From positions 64,001 through 128,000 of the forward strand of contig CAVSGG010000006.1 of the NCBI GenBank assembly GCA_963727455.1: a stretch of DNA of 64,000 nt, read 5' to 3'. Each line of letters starts with the position of its first letter. Within the stretch, counting starts at the first letter, position 1. This document shows, piece by piece, positions 14,428-42,998 of this stretch. The stretch is from Candidatus Krumholzibacteriota bacterium (lineage in GTDB: Bacteria; Krumholzibacteriota; Krumholzibacteriia; JAJRXK01). The notes below the pieces were generated by a model. It did not search any database, had not been told where the DNA came from, and saw only the letters and a program-made list of their open reading frames with translations. Both the position numbers and the translations under genes were made by a program.

Positions 14428-14511
14428 TCTACCCGGGTATACAAGTCAAGTTTTTGTCGTTTATAGCCGGCTATAAAAGTCCAGATGCTGTCGAGTCTAC
14501 CCGGGTATACA
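14428..14511. repeat. Three palindromic boxes (TA[C/G]CCGG[G/C]TATA) at an exact 34-bp period
   Basis: TCTACCCGGGTATACA at 14428-14443 and 14496-14511 (identical), with the perfect 18-bp palindrome TTTATAGCCGGCTATAAA at 14460-14477 between them. Dyad centres: 14434.5, 14468.5, 14502.5. Confidence 0.8.
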
Positions 14512-18988: not shown

Positions 18989-20152
18989 ATGCGACGCCCC
19001 CCCAAGCTGCTTTCGATCCTGACGGCCGCCCTCTTCGGCTCGCTCTTCGCTGCGAGTTGTTCCAACGACTCCACGACGACTCCTCCCACACCCGAGTTCG
19101 TCAGCCCCTGGGTCGAGATCGCCCTTCCCGACACACTTCCCAAGAGCGTATTGATGGGCATTGCCTTTTCGGGAACACGCGGACTCGCGTTGGGTGCGCA
19201 GGGAAGCTCTCAGGGATACGTGCTCGAATTCAACGGGACGAGTTGGCAGCCGCAGCAACTTCCCACCGACGTGAACGATTTTCCTCTGGCCGTGGCCATG
19301 GACTCCGCGGGCAAAGGTGTGGTCGTCGGCGCCCGCTCCGACGGAGGAGGTTCTCCGGTTGTCTTCGCGGAGCGCCCCGATTGGACTCGCGTGGATCTGC
19401 CGATGGTCTTCGGTGGACTGCAGTGCGTCGCGGTCGACGCCTCCGGCACTTTTCTGGCCGCGGGACCCGGAGGCTCCACCGTGCTCGCCCTCAGTGGCAC
19501 CGCGACCGGAAGCTGGACGCAACTCTCCATTCCCTTGCCAGGGGATCCCCAGGAGAAGGCCCTGGTGGATCTCGCCTCGCGCGACGGCACCTGGGCGGGC
19601 TGTGGATTCGACGACGGGGGACAGGGCGACGAGAATTCCCCCTTCTCCGTCGTGCTCATGAATGACGGAACGGGCTGGGATCTGCTCCCTGGCCCAGGTT
19701 GTGGAGCCTGCGGCAGCCGCGAATACCGCGCGGTGGCTCTCAACGCGCAGGGCGCTCTTCTGCTGGGAGGCGCCATCACCGATTTCTCCGCCGGGGCCGA
19801 CGATGAATACACCGCGTTCCTCGCGCTCTACGATCCCGGCAGCGAAAGCTGGACGGAGATCGTCCTTCCCGCCCCGGGCGTGCTCGATCGAGTCAACGAC
19901 ATCCTGGTGACGTCCACCGGCGATGTCTATCTGGCCTGTGGGCTGGCCCACCAGTCCTTGATCCATCACGAGCCGACGGGCAAGACCACCGTCGAATGGA
20001 GCAGCAGTGAGGAGTCGATCACGAGCCTGGCCGAGGACGCCTTGGGAAACGTCTACGCGGTCGGCGTGCACAATGAGAGAGTCGTGGGTGACCCGCCCGG
20101 CACCTATCGCATCGGCCCCCCGTTCATGCTGCAACGGCCGGCCGAACTCTGA
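18989..20152 (+). CDS. Beta-propeller-like lipoprotein, paralog 1
   Basis: Lipobox AASC; W-spaced repeats; CGFDDG, GCGACGSR and YLACG motifs shared with the next gene. Confidence 0.75.
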   Translation: MRRPPKLLSILTAALFGSLFAASCSNDSTTTPPTPEFVSPWVEIALPDTLPKSVLMGIAFSGTRGLALGAQGSSQGYVLEFNGTSWQPQQLPTDVNDFPLAVAMDSAGKGVVVGARSDGGGSPVVFAERPDWTRVDLPMVFGGLQCVAVDASGTFLAAGPGGSTVLALSGTATGSWTQLSIPLPGDPQEKALVDLASRDGTWAGCGFDDGGQGDENSPFSVVLMNDGTGWDLLPGPGCGACGSREYRAVALNAQGALLLGGAITDFSAGADDEYTAFLALYDPGSESWTEIVLPAPGVLDRVNDILVTSTGDVYLACGLAHQSLIHHEPTGKTTVEWSSSEESITSLAEDALGNVYAVGVHNERVVGDPPGTYRIGPPFMLQRPAEL

Positions 20153-20166
20153 TCCGGAGGCAGTTC

Positions 20167-21318
20167 ATGCGCACGGCCAGCAAGTACTTGATCCTTCTCA
20201 TCACGATCCTGCTGGCCTCGGTCCTTGGGCTGGCCTGTTCCGATGACGGGACCGGTCCGGGGTCCGAGAAAAGTCCCTGGAAAGCGTTCGCTCTTCCCGA
20301 CAGCCTCCCTCCGAGCAATCTCACGAGTATCGCAGTCACAGATGCTCGGGTTCTCGTGCTAGGTGCTACCGGAACGAGCGGCACGAAGCCGGACTACCTG
20401 CTCGAGTCCGACATTTCCCACTGGACCGCGCACACGCTCCCCGTCGACTCGAACGACTTCCTCTTCGGCGTGGCCATGGATGCCGCGGGCAAGGGAGTCA
20501 TCGTCGGCGCCAACGCTTCCGGCGGCGGTTCGCCCGTTGTCATGGCGGAACGTCCTGGCTGGACGCGGGTGACTCTCCCCGTGACGAGCCACGACCTACG
20601 CGCGGTGGCGGTCGACCCAAGCTCGGGCACCTTTCGAGCCACCGGGTCGACTGGTTCGAACCTGCTCGTGCTCTCCGGAACAGCAGATGGAAGCTGGACG
20701 ACAGTCTTGACCCCGTCGCTCGGCGATCCCCAAGACAAGAGCCTGGTCGATGTGGCATATGGTTCGGGAACCTGGGTGGCCTGCGGATTCGACGACGGTG
20801 CCGACGGTACGGAAGATTCTCCCTTCTCATTGGTGCTCATGGACGACGGCAGCGGTTGGACGCTGCTCAAAGGGATCGGATGCGGCGCCTGTGGATCTCG
20901 TAAGTATTACGCAGTCGCCGTCAACCAGGCCGGCGCCATTCTGCTGGGTGGGGCGATCACCGACAATTCCGCCGGGGCCGCCGACGAGTTGGTGGCCTTT
21001 CTCTCGCAGTACGACCCCGCGCACGATAAGTGGAGCGAGATCTGGCTGCCCGAGGCGGGCGCCCTCGACCAGGTCAATGACATCCTGGTGGCCGAGAGCG
21101 GCGACATCTATCTGGCCTGCGGGGAGTCCTCGGCGGCGCTGGTCCGGATCGCCGCAGCGGGCGGAGCCACCATCGAGTGGCACAGCAGCGAGGTGATCCT
21201 GCAGGCCCTCGCCGAAAGTTGGAGAGGGGACATCTTCGCGGTGGGTTCCAAGGGACCCGCCAACGAGTTTCCGCGAGACCCGTACATGCTCTGGCGCCCG
21301 CTGCGGCTCGTGTACTGA
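20167..21318 (+). CDS. Beta-propeller-like lipoprotein, paralog 2
   Basis: GGAGG RBS; lipobox GLAC; collinear similarity to 18989-20152. Confidence 0.75.
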   Translation: MRTASKYLILLITILLASVLGLACSDDGTGPGSEKSPWKAFALPDSLPPSNLTSIAVTDARVLVLGATGTSGTKPDYLLESDISHWTAHTLPVDSNDFLFGVAMDAAGKGVIVGANASGGGSPVVMAERPGWTRVTLPVTSHDLRAVAVDPSSGTFRATGSTGSNLLVLSGTADGSWTTVLTPSLGDPQDKSLVDVAYGSGTWVACGFDDGADGTEDSPFSLVLMDDGSGWTLLKGIGCGACGSRKYYAVAVNQAGAILLGGAITDNSAGAADELVAFLSQYDPAHDKWSEIWLPEAGALDQVNDILVAESGDIYLACGESSAALVRIAAAGGATIEWHSSEVILQALAESWRGDIFAVGSKGPANEFPRDPYMLWRPLRLVY

Positions 21319-27887: not shown

Positions 27888-29357
27888 ATGAATCGCTCAC
27901 ACCGTCTCGGACTCTTTCTCCTTGTCGGGATACTCCTGTTGGCCCCGGCGGCCTTTGCCCAAGTAGAGGGCCCTCATCTCGGGTTTTCCGTCCAGGGAGG
28001 GCGAAACTTCTGGACCGGGGGCAAGCCTCTCGAGAGCGATTTCATCTATGGTGGCCGCCTCGCGCTGATGCCCTGGTCACGGGTGGGGGTCGAGGGCACG
28101 CTCGAGTTGCATCCGACGCAGAATGCCGGGGGCGATGACTTCCGGGTGACGCATCTCAGCGCGAACGCCATCGTCGAGATTCTTCCCTTTCAACGTTTCA
28201 ATCCTTATGTCACGGCGGGTCTCGTGCGTCTTCATGTCGATGATTTGAGTGCGGGCGAGGAAAACTGGAACGGATGGGAATTCGGAGGCGGCGTCCTGGT
28301 GGCTCTCGCGAACGCCGAGGGACGTCGCGTCGATTTGAGAGTGGATTTGCGGCGCGTGGTAACTGAGCGCAAGAATGCTGGACCCAACGACGACAACTTT
28401 CCCACGAATTGGATTGCCACCCTCGGCTTGCGCTTCGCATTCGGCGCCAATGCCGCCGACGGTGACGCGGACGGGGTGCCCGACCGCAAAGATCGCTGCG
28501 CCGGAACTCCCCGCATGGCATCCGTCGACGAATACGGTTGTCCGACCGATGGCGACAACGACGGCGTCTTCGATGGTCTCGACCGCTGCCCGGACACGCC
28601 CCAGGGCGCGAAAGTGGACGAGGACGGCTGTCCGGTCGACAGCGACGGGGACGGTGTCTACGACCTCTTGGATCGTTGCCCCAATACCACTCCCGGCGTA
28701 CCGGTGGACGAGATGGGATGCGCGCTCGACGCGGATCAAGATGGTGTACCCGACGGGATCGATCGTTGTCCCGACACCAAAGAGGGCGAAAAGGTCGACA
28801 AGTGGGGCTGCGAAGTGGACAACGACGGCGACGGCGTGCCCGACCGCATCGACCGCTGTCCGGGTACCCCGCCCAAGGTCGCGGTGGACGAGCGGGGATG
28901 TCCCATTCCTCAGAGCGCGCGTGAAATTCAGTTACTCGATACAGGGCTGCTGCGTTTGAACAATGTGCAGTTCGAGAGCGCGAAAGCAGAGATCAAGCCG
29001 GAATCGTATCCCGCTCTGACCGACGTCGCCAAGATCCTGGTGAAGTGGCCTAGCCTGCGGATCGAGATTGGTGGACACACCGATTCGAGAGGTTCGGCCG
29101 AGTTCAATCAGAAACTGAGCGAGGCGCGCGCGCAAGCGGTCTTCAATTGGCTGACGGAAAACTTTCCTCAGCTGCGCGCGGAGCAGTTCTTGATTCGCGG
29201 CTACGGTGAGAGCCAGAGTATCGCAGACAACGCAACGGCAGAGGGTCGCGCACTCAACCGTCGCGTGGAATTCAAGGTTCTCAATCGGGAGGTTTTGCGC
29301 CACGAGGTTCCGTTGAACCCCGAGGAAGGCTCGAAAATCAACCCTAAGAAGCCTTGA
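27888..29357 (+). CDS. OmpA family protein with beta-barrel, thrombospondin type-3 (DxDxDG..D..D.CP) repeats and peptidoglycan-binding domain
   Basis: Five DxDxDGVxDxxDRC repeats; GHTDSRGS, LSEARA, GYGE, NRRVEF. Confidence 0.92.
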   Translation: MNRSHRLGLFLLVGILLLAPAAFAQVEGPHLGFSVQGGRNFWTGGKPLESDFIYGGRLALMPWSRVGVEGTLELHPTQNAGGDDFRVTHLSANAIVEILPFQRFNPYVTAGLVRLHVDDLSAGEENWNGWEFGGGVLVALANAEGRRVDLRVDLRRVVTERKNAGPNDDNFPTNWIATLGLRFAFGANAADGDADGVPDRKDRCAGTPRMASVDEYGCPTDGDNDGVFDGLDRCPDTPQGAKVDEDGCPVDSDGDGVYDLLDRCPNTTPGVPVDEMGCALDADQDGVPDGIDRCPDTKEGEKVDKWGCEVDNDGDGVPDRIDRCPGTPPKVAVDERGCPIPQSAREIQLLDTGLLRLNNVQFESAKAEIKPESYPALTDVAKILVKWPSLRIEIGGHTDSRGSAEFNQKLSEARAQAVFNWLTENFPQLRAEQFLIRGYGESQSIADNATAEGRALNRRVEFKVLNREVLRHEVPLNPEEGSKINPKKP

Positions 29358-40053: not shown

Positions 40054-40201
40054 GCTTTCCCGTATTCGTGAGATTGGACCTGACGCGCGGGCCAGAGCGA
40101 GGAGCGCCTCGAGGGCGCTGATGACAGGCCGTCCTTCGCCGTGGATATGGTACCAGAGCCCGCCTTTGCGGCAAAGCCCGGTTCTGGGCCCCGATCCCCC
40201 C

Positions 40202-40230
40202 TGTAACTCCCGTGCGGGCTGGCGCGTCTA
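40202..40230 (+). promoter_or_regulatory. ECF-type autoregulatory promoter
   Basis: TGTAAC-N17-CGTCTA just upstream of the ECF sigma gene, matching the typical AAC/CGT ECF elements. Confidence 0.7.
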
Positions 40231-40246: not shown

Positions 40247-40822
40247 ATGAAGATGGATCGACCTGCATTCAACCGCCTCCTGCTCGAGCAGAAGGACGCC
40301 GTCTATGGACTGGCGGTGCATCTGCTCAATTCGAGGGAAGAGGCGCAGGACGTGGTGCAGGACGTTTTCCTGAAGCTCTGGCGGAAAGGCGGCGCGGTCG
40401 AGGTCCAGTCGCGGCCGGCCTGGCTGCTCCGGGTTTGTCGAAACGCCTGCCTGGACCGGCTGCGGCGGCGCAAGGTTCGCCGCCACCATCGGGCCGACCC
40501 CAGCCAGATCAAACTGGGCGTCGGCTCACCCCGCGAGTTCGATGGGGACTCTGGGCGAGAGCTTTCCTTCGACCTCAGTGACGAGGGAGCCGGCGCCCAA
40601 CAGGTCGAGGATCGAAGCGAGGTACGGAGGATCGTGGCTGCGATGCAAAGACTGAGCGAGCCTCAGCGTTCGATCATCATGATGCGGGAGCTGCAGGGTT
40701 TCAGCTACGAGGAAATTGCCTCGACGACGGAACTCTCGCTCTCAGCAGTGAAGGTGAGTCTGCACCGCGCGCGCAAGAAAGTGCGACGGATCTTCGAGGA
40801 GGCAAAGGAGGTGCAAGCGTGA
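40247..40822 (+). CDS. ECF RNA polymerase sigma factor
   Basis: AQDVVQDVFLKLW, AWLLRVCRNACLDRLR, GFSYEEIA...VKVSLHRAR. Confidence 0.93.
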   Translation: MKMDRPAFNRLLLEQKDAVYGLAVHLLNSREEAQDVVQDVFLKLWRKGGAVEVQSRPAWLLRVCRNACLDRLRRRKVRRHHRADPSQIKLGVGSPREFDGDSGRELSFDLSDEGAGAQQVEDRSEVRRIVAAMQRLSEPQRSIIMMRELQGFSYEEIASTTELSLSAVKVSLHRARKKVRRIFEEAKEVQA

Positions 40823-41373
40823 ACGGCGACGAAAAATTCTTCGAAGAGAAGATGCGCGACTACCAGGCCCCCCGTTGCCCCGAGGAACTCGTCGATCGCA
40901 TCATGGCGCGAGTCGATGCCGAACCGCACCGCAAGTCTTTCGGCTCCTGGTGGGCGCTCTTCCGTTTCAAGTACGCTCTGGTGCCTGCCGCTGCGCTCGT
41001 GGTATTGCTCTTCGTGCTACTGCGCCCCGCGCCTCAGCCGCCCTCGACTCCATTGCCCGAGCACGAAACACCACAAGTGGCGATCGCCCCGCCCGAAACC
41101 ACTTCGACTCCGTGTGAGCTCGATCTACAGGAAATTCTTCGCCGCCTGGGAGCCAAGGATCGCGCGGAACTGGCGTACGACGACACGACTCTCTGCGAGG
41201 CGGCCGAGGATGTGCGCATGGCCCTGAACCTCATGGGCAAGGCCATGCATTCGACGGAACGCGTGTTGCGGAATGAAACCCGCAGACGCGTTGCCGATAC
41301 CGTGAGAATGGGGCTCGAAGCGTCGGGTGTATCGCCCGCGTCCGATGCCGCGAATCCCAAAAACGGCGGCTGA
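40819..41373 (+). CDS. Putative anti-sigma factor (single TM)
   Basis: Overlaps the sigma stop (GTGA); P.EL.DRIMA segment, TM helix, Pro-rich linker. Confidence 0.7.
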   Translation: MNGDEKFFEEKMRDYQAPRCPEELVDRIMARVDAEPHRKSFGSWWALFRFKYALVPAAALVVLLFVLLRPAPQPPSTPLPEHETPQVAIAPPETTSTPCELDLQEILRRLGAKDRAELAYDDTTLCEAAEDVRMALNLMGKAMHSTERVLRNETRRRVADTVRMGLEASGVSPASDAANPKNGG

Positions 41374-41405: not shown

Positions 41406-42041
41406 ATGCGTAAATCTCTTCTCGCTCTGGCGATCGTGGTGTTTCTCGCCCCCGTGGCGTTGGCCCGCGCGGACCAGAACAACCTTTCGGGCGAACCCGG
41501 ATACATCGACCTCAACAGCCTCAAGACTTTCGACCGCGGCAAGAGCGTGGTGGAAATCTCGTTGACGCAACCCTTGCTGAGTCTGGCCCGCTGGGCCGTC
41601 GTGGATGACGATCCGGAGATGGCCGAGATGTTGGGCGGCCTGAAGCTTTTGCAGGTCAACGTCTTCTCCTACCCCCTGAGCGAGGGAAAGAGCCTCTCCG
41701 CGAGTCTGGAGGACGTCGCGGGAAAGCTCGCCACACAGGGTTGGAATTCGGTGGTGAAGGTGAAACAGAAGAACGAAACCTGGCACATCATGGTGAAGAT
41801 GGACGAGAAGGGCGGAACCAAGGGTGCGCCCCTGCTCAACGGGGTGGCGATCCTGGGAATGGGCGACGAGAACAGCGACATTCACTATGAGGAAGGCGAC
41901 GGGTTGGAAGCGGTGTTCGTGAACGTGGTGGGCAATCTCGACTTCGCCCAGCTCAGCAAGCTCGGCAAGCATTTTGATCTGCCGATGCTGGAGAAGCTGG
42001 ACGCCAAGGACGCGGGCAAGGCCCAGGGCAGCGCTCAGTAG
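41406..42041 (+). CDS. DUF4252 family secreted protein
   Basis: Signal peptide; VVEISL..PLL, LKLLQVNVF, GWNSVVKV, VFVNVVGNLD; the usual ECF-operon context for this family. Confidence 0.8.
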   Translation: MRKSLLALAIVVFLAPVALARADQNNLSGEPGYIDLNSLKTFDRGKSVVEISLTQPLLSLARWAVVDDDPEMAEMLGGLKLLQVNVFSYPLSEGKSLSASLEDVAGKLATQGWNSVVKVKQKNETWHIMVKMDEKGGTKGAPLLNGVAILGMGDENSDIHYEEGDGLEAVFVNVVGNLDFAQLSKLGKHFDLPMLEKLDAKDAGKAQGSAQ

Positions 42042-42128
42042 GGCCGAATTCGACCAAAACAGGCCCGGATTTTTTGCCGCTGGGGCGCTCTTCCGGCCTG
42101 GAAAAAGAACTTTGAAAGTACTAAACTA

Positions 42129-42165
42129 AGGAGGCCGGCATTCTGAATCAGGATGCCGGCCTTCT
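42129..42165 (+). terminator. Strong hairpin between convergent genes (terminator or 5' part of the adjacent RNA)
   Basis: AGGAGGCCGGCATTCTG-AAT-CAGGATGCCGGCCTTCT, a 17-bp stem. Confidence 0.55.
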
Positions 42166-42200
42166 CATGTCAGCTACGGCAAGTTCGGTCCTTCAGCCCC

Positions 42201-42392
42201 GAGGGGATGTGAGTTCGCGACATCGAGACAGGAGCAGGCTGGCACACGGGCGCCGCCAGTGCTCGCCTGGGTGAACTCGCTGGGCGTGGTGAGTACCTGG
42301 GTTGGACTCGATGAGGTTCCGCTGGTCGAATTGGGGACTGGGACCTCCCCGTCGACCGCGAAGGCGGATCCCAAGGCGACTCACGTCCCCTC
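42201..42392 (+). ncRNA. Candidate 192-nt multi-branched structured RNA, family unassigned
   Basis: The 5' and 3' ends pair over about 17 bp and enclose four nested helices; G-U pairs consistently favour the + strand. Confidence 0.5.
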
Positions 42393-42398
42393 ATCCTT

Positions 42399-42998
42399 CT
42401 ACTGGCGGATCAGATCTTCCTTGGACAACAGACGCGCGTGGAGATCGGTGAGGCTCGCGCTGCCCGAGAGGTTCGTCAGCGCAGGTCCGCCGGGAGTCCG
42501 CGCGTAGATATCCACGCGGAGCCAGACCTCGTTTCCACTGAAGAGTTCCAGGGTGTCCTGGTCGAGCTGGGTGCTCCCGTTCACCGGGGTCACGGTCGCG
42601 TCCTGTACGGAGACCGGAATGCTCATGATCGGGGTCGTGCTGGCGGTGGCGTCAGCGGCAGTCGCTCCCAGGAAGAGATCGAAACGCAGCTCGGCTTCAC
42701 CGCTCTGGTTGTCGAACTCTCCCTTGAGGTAGAGGGTTCCTTCCTCCATGAGAGACGCAGTGCCCAGACCCTCAAGAAGATCGATCTTCGTGGGTGGGAT
42801 GAGGTCTACCACTGGCACCCAGGTGCCGGTGGGCGGGACCTCGGCCGCGTAGTCCGTGCTCAAATCCTCTTCGTTGATGAAACTCAGGAAGTCGAGATTC
42901 AGAATGATGGTTCCACCGGCACAGGCCAAGAGCAGAAGGAAGGTCACGGCGACGAGCGAGCGCGAAGTCTTCAGGCGTTGGAAAATCGATTTCTTCAT
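42399..42998 (-). CDS. Hypothetical lipoprotein
   Basis: Lipobox-like LLAC; cotranscribed with the upstream beta-barrel gene. Confidence 0.65.
   Translation of the reverse strand: MKKSIFQRLKTSRSLVAVTFLLLLACAGGTIILNLDFLSFINEEDLSTDYAAEVPPTGTWVPVVDLIPPTKIDLLEGLGTASLMEEGTLYLKGEFDNQSGEAELRFDLFLGATAADATASTTPIMSIPVSVQDATVTPVNGSTQLDQDTLELFSGNEVWLRVDIYARTPGGPALTNLSGSASLTDLHARLLSKEDLIRQ

Follow-up and report, generated by a model that had tools for sequence, protein, structure and literature searches.

A structured noncoding element between convergent genes

We describe a structured RNA element in a window of 64,000 nucleotides, the whole stretch of DNA analyzed here, which spans positions 64,001 to 128,000 of contig CAVSGG010000006.1 from a Candidatus Krumholzibacteriota bacterium (genome G000 below). 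Coordinates given without a contig handle refer to this window. The element has a 192-nt conserved core on the plus strand, preceded by a short hairpin and a promoter-like motif, and lies between an operon ending in a DUF4252 gene and a convergent gene for a predicted lipoprotein. The structure of the core is far beyond chance and is maintained by compensatory changes in homologues; together these sequences are a new RNA family without a known relative. The features of the locus, beginning with those of the RNA, are listed below.

42201-42392, plus strand: 192-nt conserved core, defined by its fold, a covariance model, and covariation
42201-42218 / 42376-42392, plus strand: closing stem P1, 17 bp, from the fold
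42221-42227 / 42307-42313, plus strand: stem P2, from the fold, enclosing the P3 and P4 hairpins
42232-42264, plus strand: P3 hairpin; its loop L3, at 42244-42254, is ACACGGGCGCC
42265-42302, plus strand: P4 hairpin; the L4 motif TGGGCGTGG lies at 42281-42289
42315-42371, plus strand: long P5 hairpin, inside P1; its loop L5, at 42338-42345, is CTGGGACC
42099-42127, plus strand: sigma-70-like promoter motif TGGAAA-N17-TAAACT (-35 at 42099-42104, -10 at 42122-42127; predicted start, ~42133)
42129-42165, plus strand: 5' hairpin of 17 bp with a 3-nt loop, from the fold
42166-42200, plus strand: linker from the 5' hairpin to the core, ending in CCCC and conserved in close orthologues only
42393-42402, plus strand: pyrimidine-rich tail ATCCTTCTAC, directly after P1
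40247-40822, plus strand: extracytoplasmic function (ECF) sigma gene with sigma-70 r2/r4 domains, first of its operon
40819-41373, plus strand: anti-sigma-like gene, in the middle of the ECF sigma/DUF4252 operon
41406-42041, plus strand: DUF4252 gene (Pfam PF14060, E 9.4e-12), last of the operon; context, and not part of the RNA
42041-42075, plus strand: possible weak terminator of the upstream operon, a GGGCC...GGCCC stem followed by T6 in the sequence; tentative
42399-42998, minus strand: convergent gene for a 199-aa predicted lipoprotein without a Pfam family; the stop codon is 6 nt past the end of P1
43010-45145, minus strand: gene for a 711-aa protein, upstream of the lipoprotein gene, with a weak PorV/PorQ-like C terminus and no Pfam family

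The minimum-free-energy (MFE) fold of 42201-42392 on the plus strand reproduces, position for position, all helices that had been proposed in a first-pass annotation of this DNA. The 17-bp hairpin and the AT-rich TAAACT segment that it placed upstream are likewise present, although the annotation overlooked that the latter belongs, as the -10 box, to a conserved promoter-like motif. In both the MFE and the consensus folds, P1 surrounds P2 (with its P3 and P4 hairpins) as well as P5, which gives a branched architecture with two three-way junctions. The fold energy of the core is -104.3 kcal/mol, and none of 200 dinucleotide shuffles of this strand folded as well (mean, -81.3 kcal/mol; standard deviation, 4.4 kcal/mol; z score, -5.28). 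The minus strand folds worse, at -88.2 kcal/mol (z score, -4.11). Across 18 homologues, the paired positions hold 142 G-U cells versus 17 A-C cells, an excess that identifies the plus strand of the window as the RNA strand and bears out the strand preference claimed in the annotation. At the older loci of the family, described below, this is also the strand of an upstream M14 gene.

The element does not appear to be part of a gene for a protein. Several short open reading frames (ORFs) overlap it, none of them carrying a Pfam family. No reading frame is open throughout the 18 homologues, in two copies every one of the six frames is interrupted by stops, and the length of the core ranges from 183 to 204 nt. 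As there is no shared open frame and the length is variable, we conclude that the element is not coding.

Members and phylogenetic range of the RNA family

By BLASTN, three other genomes of the genus have orthologues, with 98%, 83%, and 73% identity, and G000 itself has weak partial matches at two further places. A covariance model built from the four orthologues (R1) then resolved three full-length copies in G000: the window copy (contig C6), C8:482066-482256, and C9:212291-212482. The latter two are paralogues that had escaped the first-pass annotation. The window copy scores 220 bits with R1 and 187.8 bits with R2, a broader, later model. Across one GTDB family of Candidatus Krumholzibacteriota, R1 retrieved 13 full-length copies, distributed over 9 of the 10 genomes. 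In the tenth (G006), a copy scoring 54.5 bits occupies the syntenic position but is detected only when the speed filters are disabled. Members of the RNA family are thus present in all 10 genomes. The window copy has the P1-P5 architecture together with the L3 motif CGGGCGCC and the L5 motif GGGACC, both of which occur in 18 of 18 members. With three copies in G000, all in conserved synteny, the core is not a dispersed repeat.

To cover a wider range of DNA, the pattern of three conserved loops was scanned over GTDB species genomes, JGI metagenomes, and viral contigs. The species genomes gave 14 loci, 8 in the Krumholzibacteriota family and 6 in other phyla; the metagenomes gave 21, of which 11 are full-length model matches and 10 have no model match; the viral contigs gave none. 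By their record titles, the carriers among these loci are Candidatus Krumholzibacteriota or Krumholzibacteriia metagenome-assembled genomes (MAGs). The 6 loci in other phyla (Acidobacteria, Actinomycetes, Streptomyces, Planctomycetaceae, Fibrobacterota, and Microthrixaceae) look like coding sequence. All 16 out-of-family loci were set aside as chance matches in GC-rich DNA that look coding when folded or read; with filters off, no credible model match was found among them, the best being 19.9 bits over 66 nt.

Searches with R2 gave no match in 141 genomes from eight other families of the phylum or in 35 genomes from other families of the class; because strict filters were applied and few candidates were scored, both searches could have missed weak matches. 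When the filters were off, no RNA was found downstream of M14 orthologues in four other families, nor around the CYTH genes of two of those four. Among the families searched, the RNA was found only in one GTDB family.

At the gathering score, Rfam 15 returned no match in the whole 64-kb window. At E values of up to 10 over 41900-42600, only three noise matches to microRNA models appeared (15 to 22 bits), and in 8 paralogue loci there was no match at E values of up to 1, including to the large RNA classes. These results agree with the annotation's view that the element has no signature of transfer-messenger RNA (tmRNA), RNase P, signal recognition particle (SRP) RNA, or a riboswitch. They also lend weight, along with the strong covariation and the family of homologues, to one of the identities that it had offered, a novel noncoding RNA. 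A literature search for noncoding RNAs, small RNAs, or RNA motifs in Krumholzibacteriota, or for a CYTH-associated RNA motif, yielded nothing relevant, and a search on the loop sequence returned only unrelated primer strings.

Covarying stems and invariant loops

The 18 cores are strongly diverged, with a median pairwise identity of 45% and a minimum of 29%. For the main covariation analysis, 23 sequences (17 of them distinct) were aligned to the model. Standard pairing was seen in 90.7% of cells, compared to 67.3% in column shuffles and 38 to 46% when partners were slid by 1 to 3 columns, and 0 of 500 shuffles reached the observed value on any of five measures. Double-sided changes occur in 58 of the 69 pairs among the 17 distinct sequences; the four orthologues by themselves already show 11 compensatory pairs among 69. 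Since this alignment was fitted to the model, an alignment of 16 sequences was also made with MAFFT only. RNAalifold recovered from it P1, both segments of P3 and P4, and the tip of P5, predicting 35 pairs, 27 of them with compensatory changes. Covariation, one of the checks suggested in the first-pass annotation, is therefore evident in both alignments.

The loops follow a different pattern. L3 (CGGGCGCCG) and L5 (GGGACC) are identical in 18 of 18 sequences and occupy near-constant positions. L4, in the form GGGCGTGG or GGGCGUGG, is present in 16 of 18, being absent from G006 and G007. The junction nucleotides are unconserved in the alignment of homologues. The invariant L3 contains a perfect palindrome, GGCGCC, which could drive loop-loop dimerization, and GGCGU of L4 could pair with GCGCC of L3; both suggestions are read from the loop sequences, whose residues never vary.

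Attempts to locate a target through the loops gave little. Counting the loop motifs and their complements in the genome was uninformative, with 19 sites for the 10-mer. One nearby loop-motif site was rejected as a target, as it falls in coding sequence and is a chance match. Complementarity of L5 to the region before the CYTH start codon was seen in G006 only and is thus inconsistent across copies.

The older locus and its CYTH gene

The most widespread locus of the family consists of a gene for an M14-type peptidase (~930 aa) followed by the RNA on the same strand. Of the 10 loci of this kind, 8 have an M14 assignment backed by Pfam or by homology. This count excludes G002 and the C1 locus of G004, where crude ORF picking took a long opposite-strand ORF; the upstream coding end aligns at both. 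The RNA loci are syntenic across four genera. In three of these (g2, g3, and g4), as well as on the metagenome contigs L082 and L086, a gene with a CYTH domain starts 26 to 100 nt after the core on the same strand. Exactly one CYTH gene is present in each of the five genomes concerned (G005 to G009), always directly downstream of the RNA. In the genus of the window, CYTH is absent from 5 of 5 genomes, and the RNA is kept there in 1 to 3 copies each.

At the M14 locus of the window's genus, the core lies within a conserved noncoding block of ~470 nt in total. A -10-like GGTAGAAT box, ~130 nt before the core, marks one limit of the block, and an intrinsic terminator, ~150 nt after the core, marks the other. 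RNAalifold on five sequences of the block gave 145 pairs, 25 with compensatory changes, including a predicted long-range helix that encloses the core together with its 5' and 3' arms. The block is thus a candidate large structured RNA. The next gene, for a NeuD/PglB-like hexapeptide acetyltransferase, lies ~300 nt further on. In G000, the blocks are at C8:481900-482400 and C9:212100-212650, with orthologues in G001, G002, and G004. The surrounding locus (DegT aminotransferase, M14, RNA, acetyltransferase) is present twice in G000, at ~476 to 488 kb of C8 and ~206 to 218 kb of C9, and the genes of the two copies are much alike in size. Either a segmental duplication or two co-binned strains (contamination, 6.68%) could account for this. 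The window copy is a genus-specific paralogue derived from the RNA of this older locus. The first-pass annotation had not noticed that the older homologues either lead a CYTH gene or make up the middle domain of a larger RNA.

The association with CYTH raises the main rival explanation, in which the core originally served the gene for CYTH, a triphosphate tunnel metalloenzyme, as a cis-regulatory leader of the riboswitch or protein-binding kind, and the copies in the window's genus are orphaned or reused aptamers. Those copies might then control read-through, in the case of the window copy of antisense transcription into the 199-aa gene. The leader position is found in the 5 genomes and 2 metagenome contigs named above, where the single CYTH gene of each CYTH-bearing genome always stands behind the RNA, and L082 has a hairpin and a U-run between the core and the start codon. 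In addition, a multihelix junction with a long P1 and conserved distal loops would be compatible with some riboswitch architectures. However, neither the window copy nor the other copies of its genus occupy such a position: all five genomes lack CYTH and still retain the RNA with invariant loops, and the large version in this genus has its own intrinsic terminator and a distant next gene. The window copy faces a convergent gene and therefore lacks a gene downstream on its own strand that it could regulate in cis. Moreover, it is the terminal loops that are conserved and not the junction nucleotides, the 17-bp P1 is stable, no alternative pairing or expression platform was seen on reading the sequences, and in two other families of the class no such RNA precedes the CYTH genes. 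On this evidence, we regard a cis-regulatory leader as unlikely, while treating it as the foremost competitor.

Setting and transcription signals of the window copy

Orthologues of the window type occur in G003, G001, and G004 and on the metagenome contigs L083 and L094. This type consists of the core alone with its own 5' hairpin, placed after the ECF sigma/anti-sigma-like/DUF4252 operon, except that L094 has a different upstream gene. The convergent arrangement with the RNA is kept in G001, G004, and L094.

The sigma-70-like motif with its 17-nt spacer precedes all 5 distinct window-type copies (G000, G003, G001 on C5, G004 on C7, and L094), with the variants TGGAAA-17-TAATCT in G004 and TTGGAA-17-TATACT in L094. 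In the 64-kb window, the pattern occurs once, versus 0.06 occurrences expected. We infer that TGGAAA-N17-TAAACT would function as a promoter for the RNA. The 5' hairpin that follows is preserved in G001 through two compensatory changes, and L094 has an unrelated hairpin at the matching place, directly after the -10 box. Nearly every copy has a C/U-rich tract after P1. Ten sequencing runs were found to hold the sequence; they are DNA-type metagenomes, and none is RNA. The DNA occurs in wetland and salt-marsh habitats.

The tentative terminator of the upstream operon at 42041-42075 has a counterpart, a hairpin with a T-run at the matching place, in G003 and G001. Its loop is too long for the terminator scan, which consequently missed the stem. 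Just before the ECF sigma gene, an ECF-type promoter-like sequence, GTAAC-N16-CGTCTA, lies in 40195-40230, which suggests autoregulation of the sigma/anti-sigma/DUF4252 operon. Dependence of the RNA on this ECF sigma factor was considered and rejected, as the sequence before the sigma operon is unlike TGGAAA-N17-TAAACT. On the other side of the RNA, the C-terminal resemblance of the 711-aa protein is to the NCBIfam model PorV_fam (E 3.4e-4), below the cutoff.

The position between convergent genes also invites another explanation, namely, that the element is an intergenic structure (a bidirectional terminator, an insulator, or a REP-like sequence) with no discrete function as an RNA. The minus strand does have a T-rich run after the 42129-42165 hairpin; L094, however, has no such run. 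Against this explanation, too, homologues occur in a co-directional context (M14, RNA, CYTH), the loops are invariant while the stems covary, the G-U pairs favor the plus strand, and the genome holds only 3 copies, all of them syntenic. We consider it improbable.

Three other repeats were recorded elsewhere in the window. At 28464-28903, four copies of an 80-nt unit, rich in GAC/GGC codons, recur with 90-nt spacing and 60 to 70% identity; they look like an Asp-rich (calcium-binding-type) protein repeat within a gene. A 143-nt direct repeat (19259-19401 and 20437-20579; 72% identity; spacing, 1178 nt) probably represents two tandem paralogous gene segments. Finally, an AT-richer stretch at 14430-14507 contains a 41-nt imperfect palindrome with overlapping arms that are 73% complementary.

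Known RNA classes and mobile elements

In size (~190 nt) and in its long terminal helix, the element recalls 6S RNA, and a divergent 6S was among the identities proposed in the first-pass annotation. G000 already has a true 6S RNA, an RF00013 match of 60.2 bits (over the cutoff) at C5:583654-583833, and the fold of the element is branched, without the central bubble of 6S. Other housekeeping RNAs fare no better: SRP RNA (78.4 bits) and tmRNA (166.6 bits) are encoded elsewhere in G000, and ARAGORN, which detects tRNA and tmRNA, found nothing in nine loci. RNase P RNA (RF00010) was not found in G000, a MAG estimated to be 88.85% complete, and this is most likely an assembly gap. The larger block had offered a hint of RNase P in an AGUCG/CGGCU pairing. 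Since 9 of 9 relatives carry a normal type A RNase P RNA (273 to 302 bits) somewhere else, at a locus unrelated to the block, the ~470-nt RNA is not RNase P. A housekeeping identity for the element can be given almost no credence.

A second proposal of the annotation, the noncoding, guide-type end of a lost mobile element such as IS110 or IS200/605, can be extended to a cryptic element and to the noncoding RNA of a retron. Such an RNA would be in keeping with the length of ~190 nt, the multistem fold, and the presence of several copies per genome. It is contradicted by the company that the RNA keeps: no transposase, recombinase, or reverse transcriptase gene was found beside any examined copy, and the copies instead adjoin genes for the ECF sigma operon, the lipoprotein, the M14 peptidase, CYTH, and the hexapeptide transferase, housekeeping or envelope genes whose positions are syntenic across genera. 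Within the genome, the IS110-type family (PF01548) gave its only match on contig C3 and TnpB-type proteins (PF07282) gave no match, and the RNA had no match in plasmid, phage, or viral collections. We judge a mobile-element origin to be very improbable, and this part of the annotation is not supported.

The G-rich loops also brought to mind a sponge of the CsrA/RsmA type, which would titrate CsrA. Three hairpin loops share GGG, and CsrA (PF02599) is encoded exactly once in 5 of 5 genomes of the three CYTH-bearing genera. In the window's genus, however, it is found in 0 of 5 genomes (G000 having the completeness given above), and the loops read CGGGCGCC, GGGCGUGG, and GGGACC, that is, GGG(C/A) rather than the GGA that CsrA recognizes according to PMC13443453. 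A CsrA sponge was accordingly rejected for this genus and has next to no probability overall.

Proposed function and its weighing

On balance, we favor, with restrained confidence, the reading that 42129-42400 on the plus strand is a stand-alone gene for a structured small RNA of a new family, ~260 nt long, that acts in trans through its loops. The transcript would start from the promoter motif and would comprise the 5' hairpin followed by the 192-nt core. The core itself is an autonomous folding module that occurs in three transcript settings. In three genera, it stands directly upstream of the sole CYTH gene; in the window's genus, where CYTH is absent, it is the middle domain of the ~470-nt RNA, which has its own terminator; and in the genus-specific paralogue of the window, it stands alone behind its own predicted promoter. 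The stems of the module can vary as long as pairing holds, with L3 and L5 fixed and L4 usually kept. Because a rigid, covarying fold carries invariant apical loops in all three contexts, we infer a scaffold that displays L3, L5, and usually L4 to a partner in trans, which may be a protein or an RNA. That the RNA was kept, enlarged, and duplicated after the loss of CYTH, and that the window copy has no gene to act on in cis, favors a trans-acting role.

Several observations weigh against this reading. The large covariation counts come from model-fitted alignments, and it is the MAFFT-only result that is independent of the fit; as few lineages were sampled (four genera and metagenome relatives), the counts are not independent events. 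The presentation of loops to a partner is deduced from the conservation pattern. In three of the four genera, the RNA sits upstream of a same-strand CYTH gene, at the short distance given above, as a cis-acting leader or riboswitch would, and most of these copies, when read by eye, have no terminator between the RNA and CYTH. For the window copy, transcription and the ends of the RNA are predictions from sequence, with no clear 3' end to be seen. A simple scan listed no promoter and no terminator for this copy; the promoter motif matches the consensus at 8 of 12 positions, and the scan rule of 9 of 12 left it unlisted.

A more far-reaching proposal, which we consider unlikely, is that the core is a new, autonomous RNA module on which the invariant loops make up a specific binding or catalytic surface, and that it is central to a new class of large structured RNAs, represented by the ~470-nt version with its long-range closing helix. 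The window copy would then be a trimmed, stand-alone paralogue. By way of the palindromic GGCGCC of L3, it might form a kissing-loop dimer, either with a second molecule of its own kind or with the large RNA. If true, this would amount to an RNA-RNA or ribonucleoprotein machine without a known counterpart.

The natural history of the family offers unusually direct clues for experiments: a CYTH leader that was retained, enlarged to ~470 nt, and duplicated after CYTH was lost. It also illustrates the reuse of a structured RNA module in differing transcript contexts. Krumholzibacteriota are uncultured, and the narrow range of the RNA corresponds to one family. Complex-folded RNAs that, like this one with its ~58 covarying base pairs, combine covariation with invariant loops and have no relative in Rfam have repeatedly proved to be new riboswitches, ribozymes, or components of ribonucleoproteins.

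Comparison with known systems

Among characterized RNAs, 6S RNA (RF00013) resembles the element in its size, its long terminal closing helix, and its status as a stand-alone gene, and presumably also in acting by shape and not by long base pairing. The element differs from it in its two three-way junctions and in lacking a bubble that resembles an open promoter, and it has no Rfam similarity to 6S at E values of up to 10. The CsrB/RsmY/RsmZ sponges likewise combine variable stems with a G-rich motif shared by the loops of several hairpins, and they, too, occur as multiple paralogues per genome. Their motif is GGA, whereas the element has GGGCG or GGGAC, and its two or three motif loops are held in a rigid junction, not in a chain of hairpins.

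Riboswitches of the yybP-ykoY Mn2+ class have a multihelix junction in which conserved distal loops dock. The element shares with this type a long P1, a multihelix junction, and conservation of the distal loops, and in three genera it lies upstream of CYTH. In contrast to such riboswitches, it has no Rfam match, includes orphan copies, persists after the loss of CYTH, and has no recognizable expression platform. The IS110 bridge RNA and the omega RNA (reRNA) of IS200/605 elements are comparable in size, in their multistem folds, and in their noncoding position beside a gene; the element differs in having no recombinase or nuclease partner and in its fixed, syntenic chromosomal position.

OLE, GOLLD, ROOL, and raiA are, as a class, large structured bacterial RNAs of unknown function. 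The window copy corresponds to the 192-nt core only, the family has a much narrower phylogenetic range than these RNAs, and it has no Rfam match at E values of up to 1. The likeness is with the ~470-nt version, which is multidomain, supported by covariation, equipped with its own terminator, and, as in that class, without a known function.

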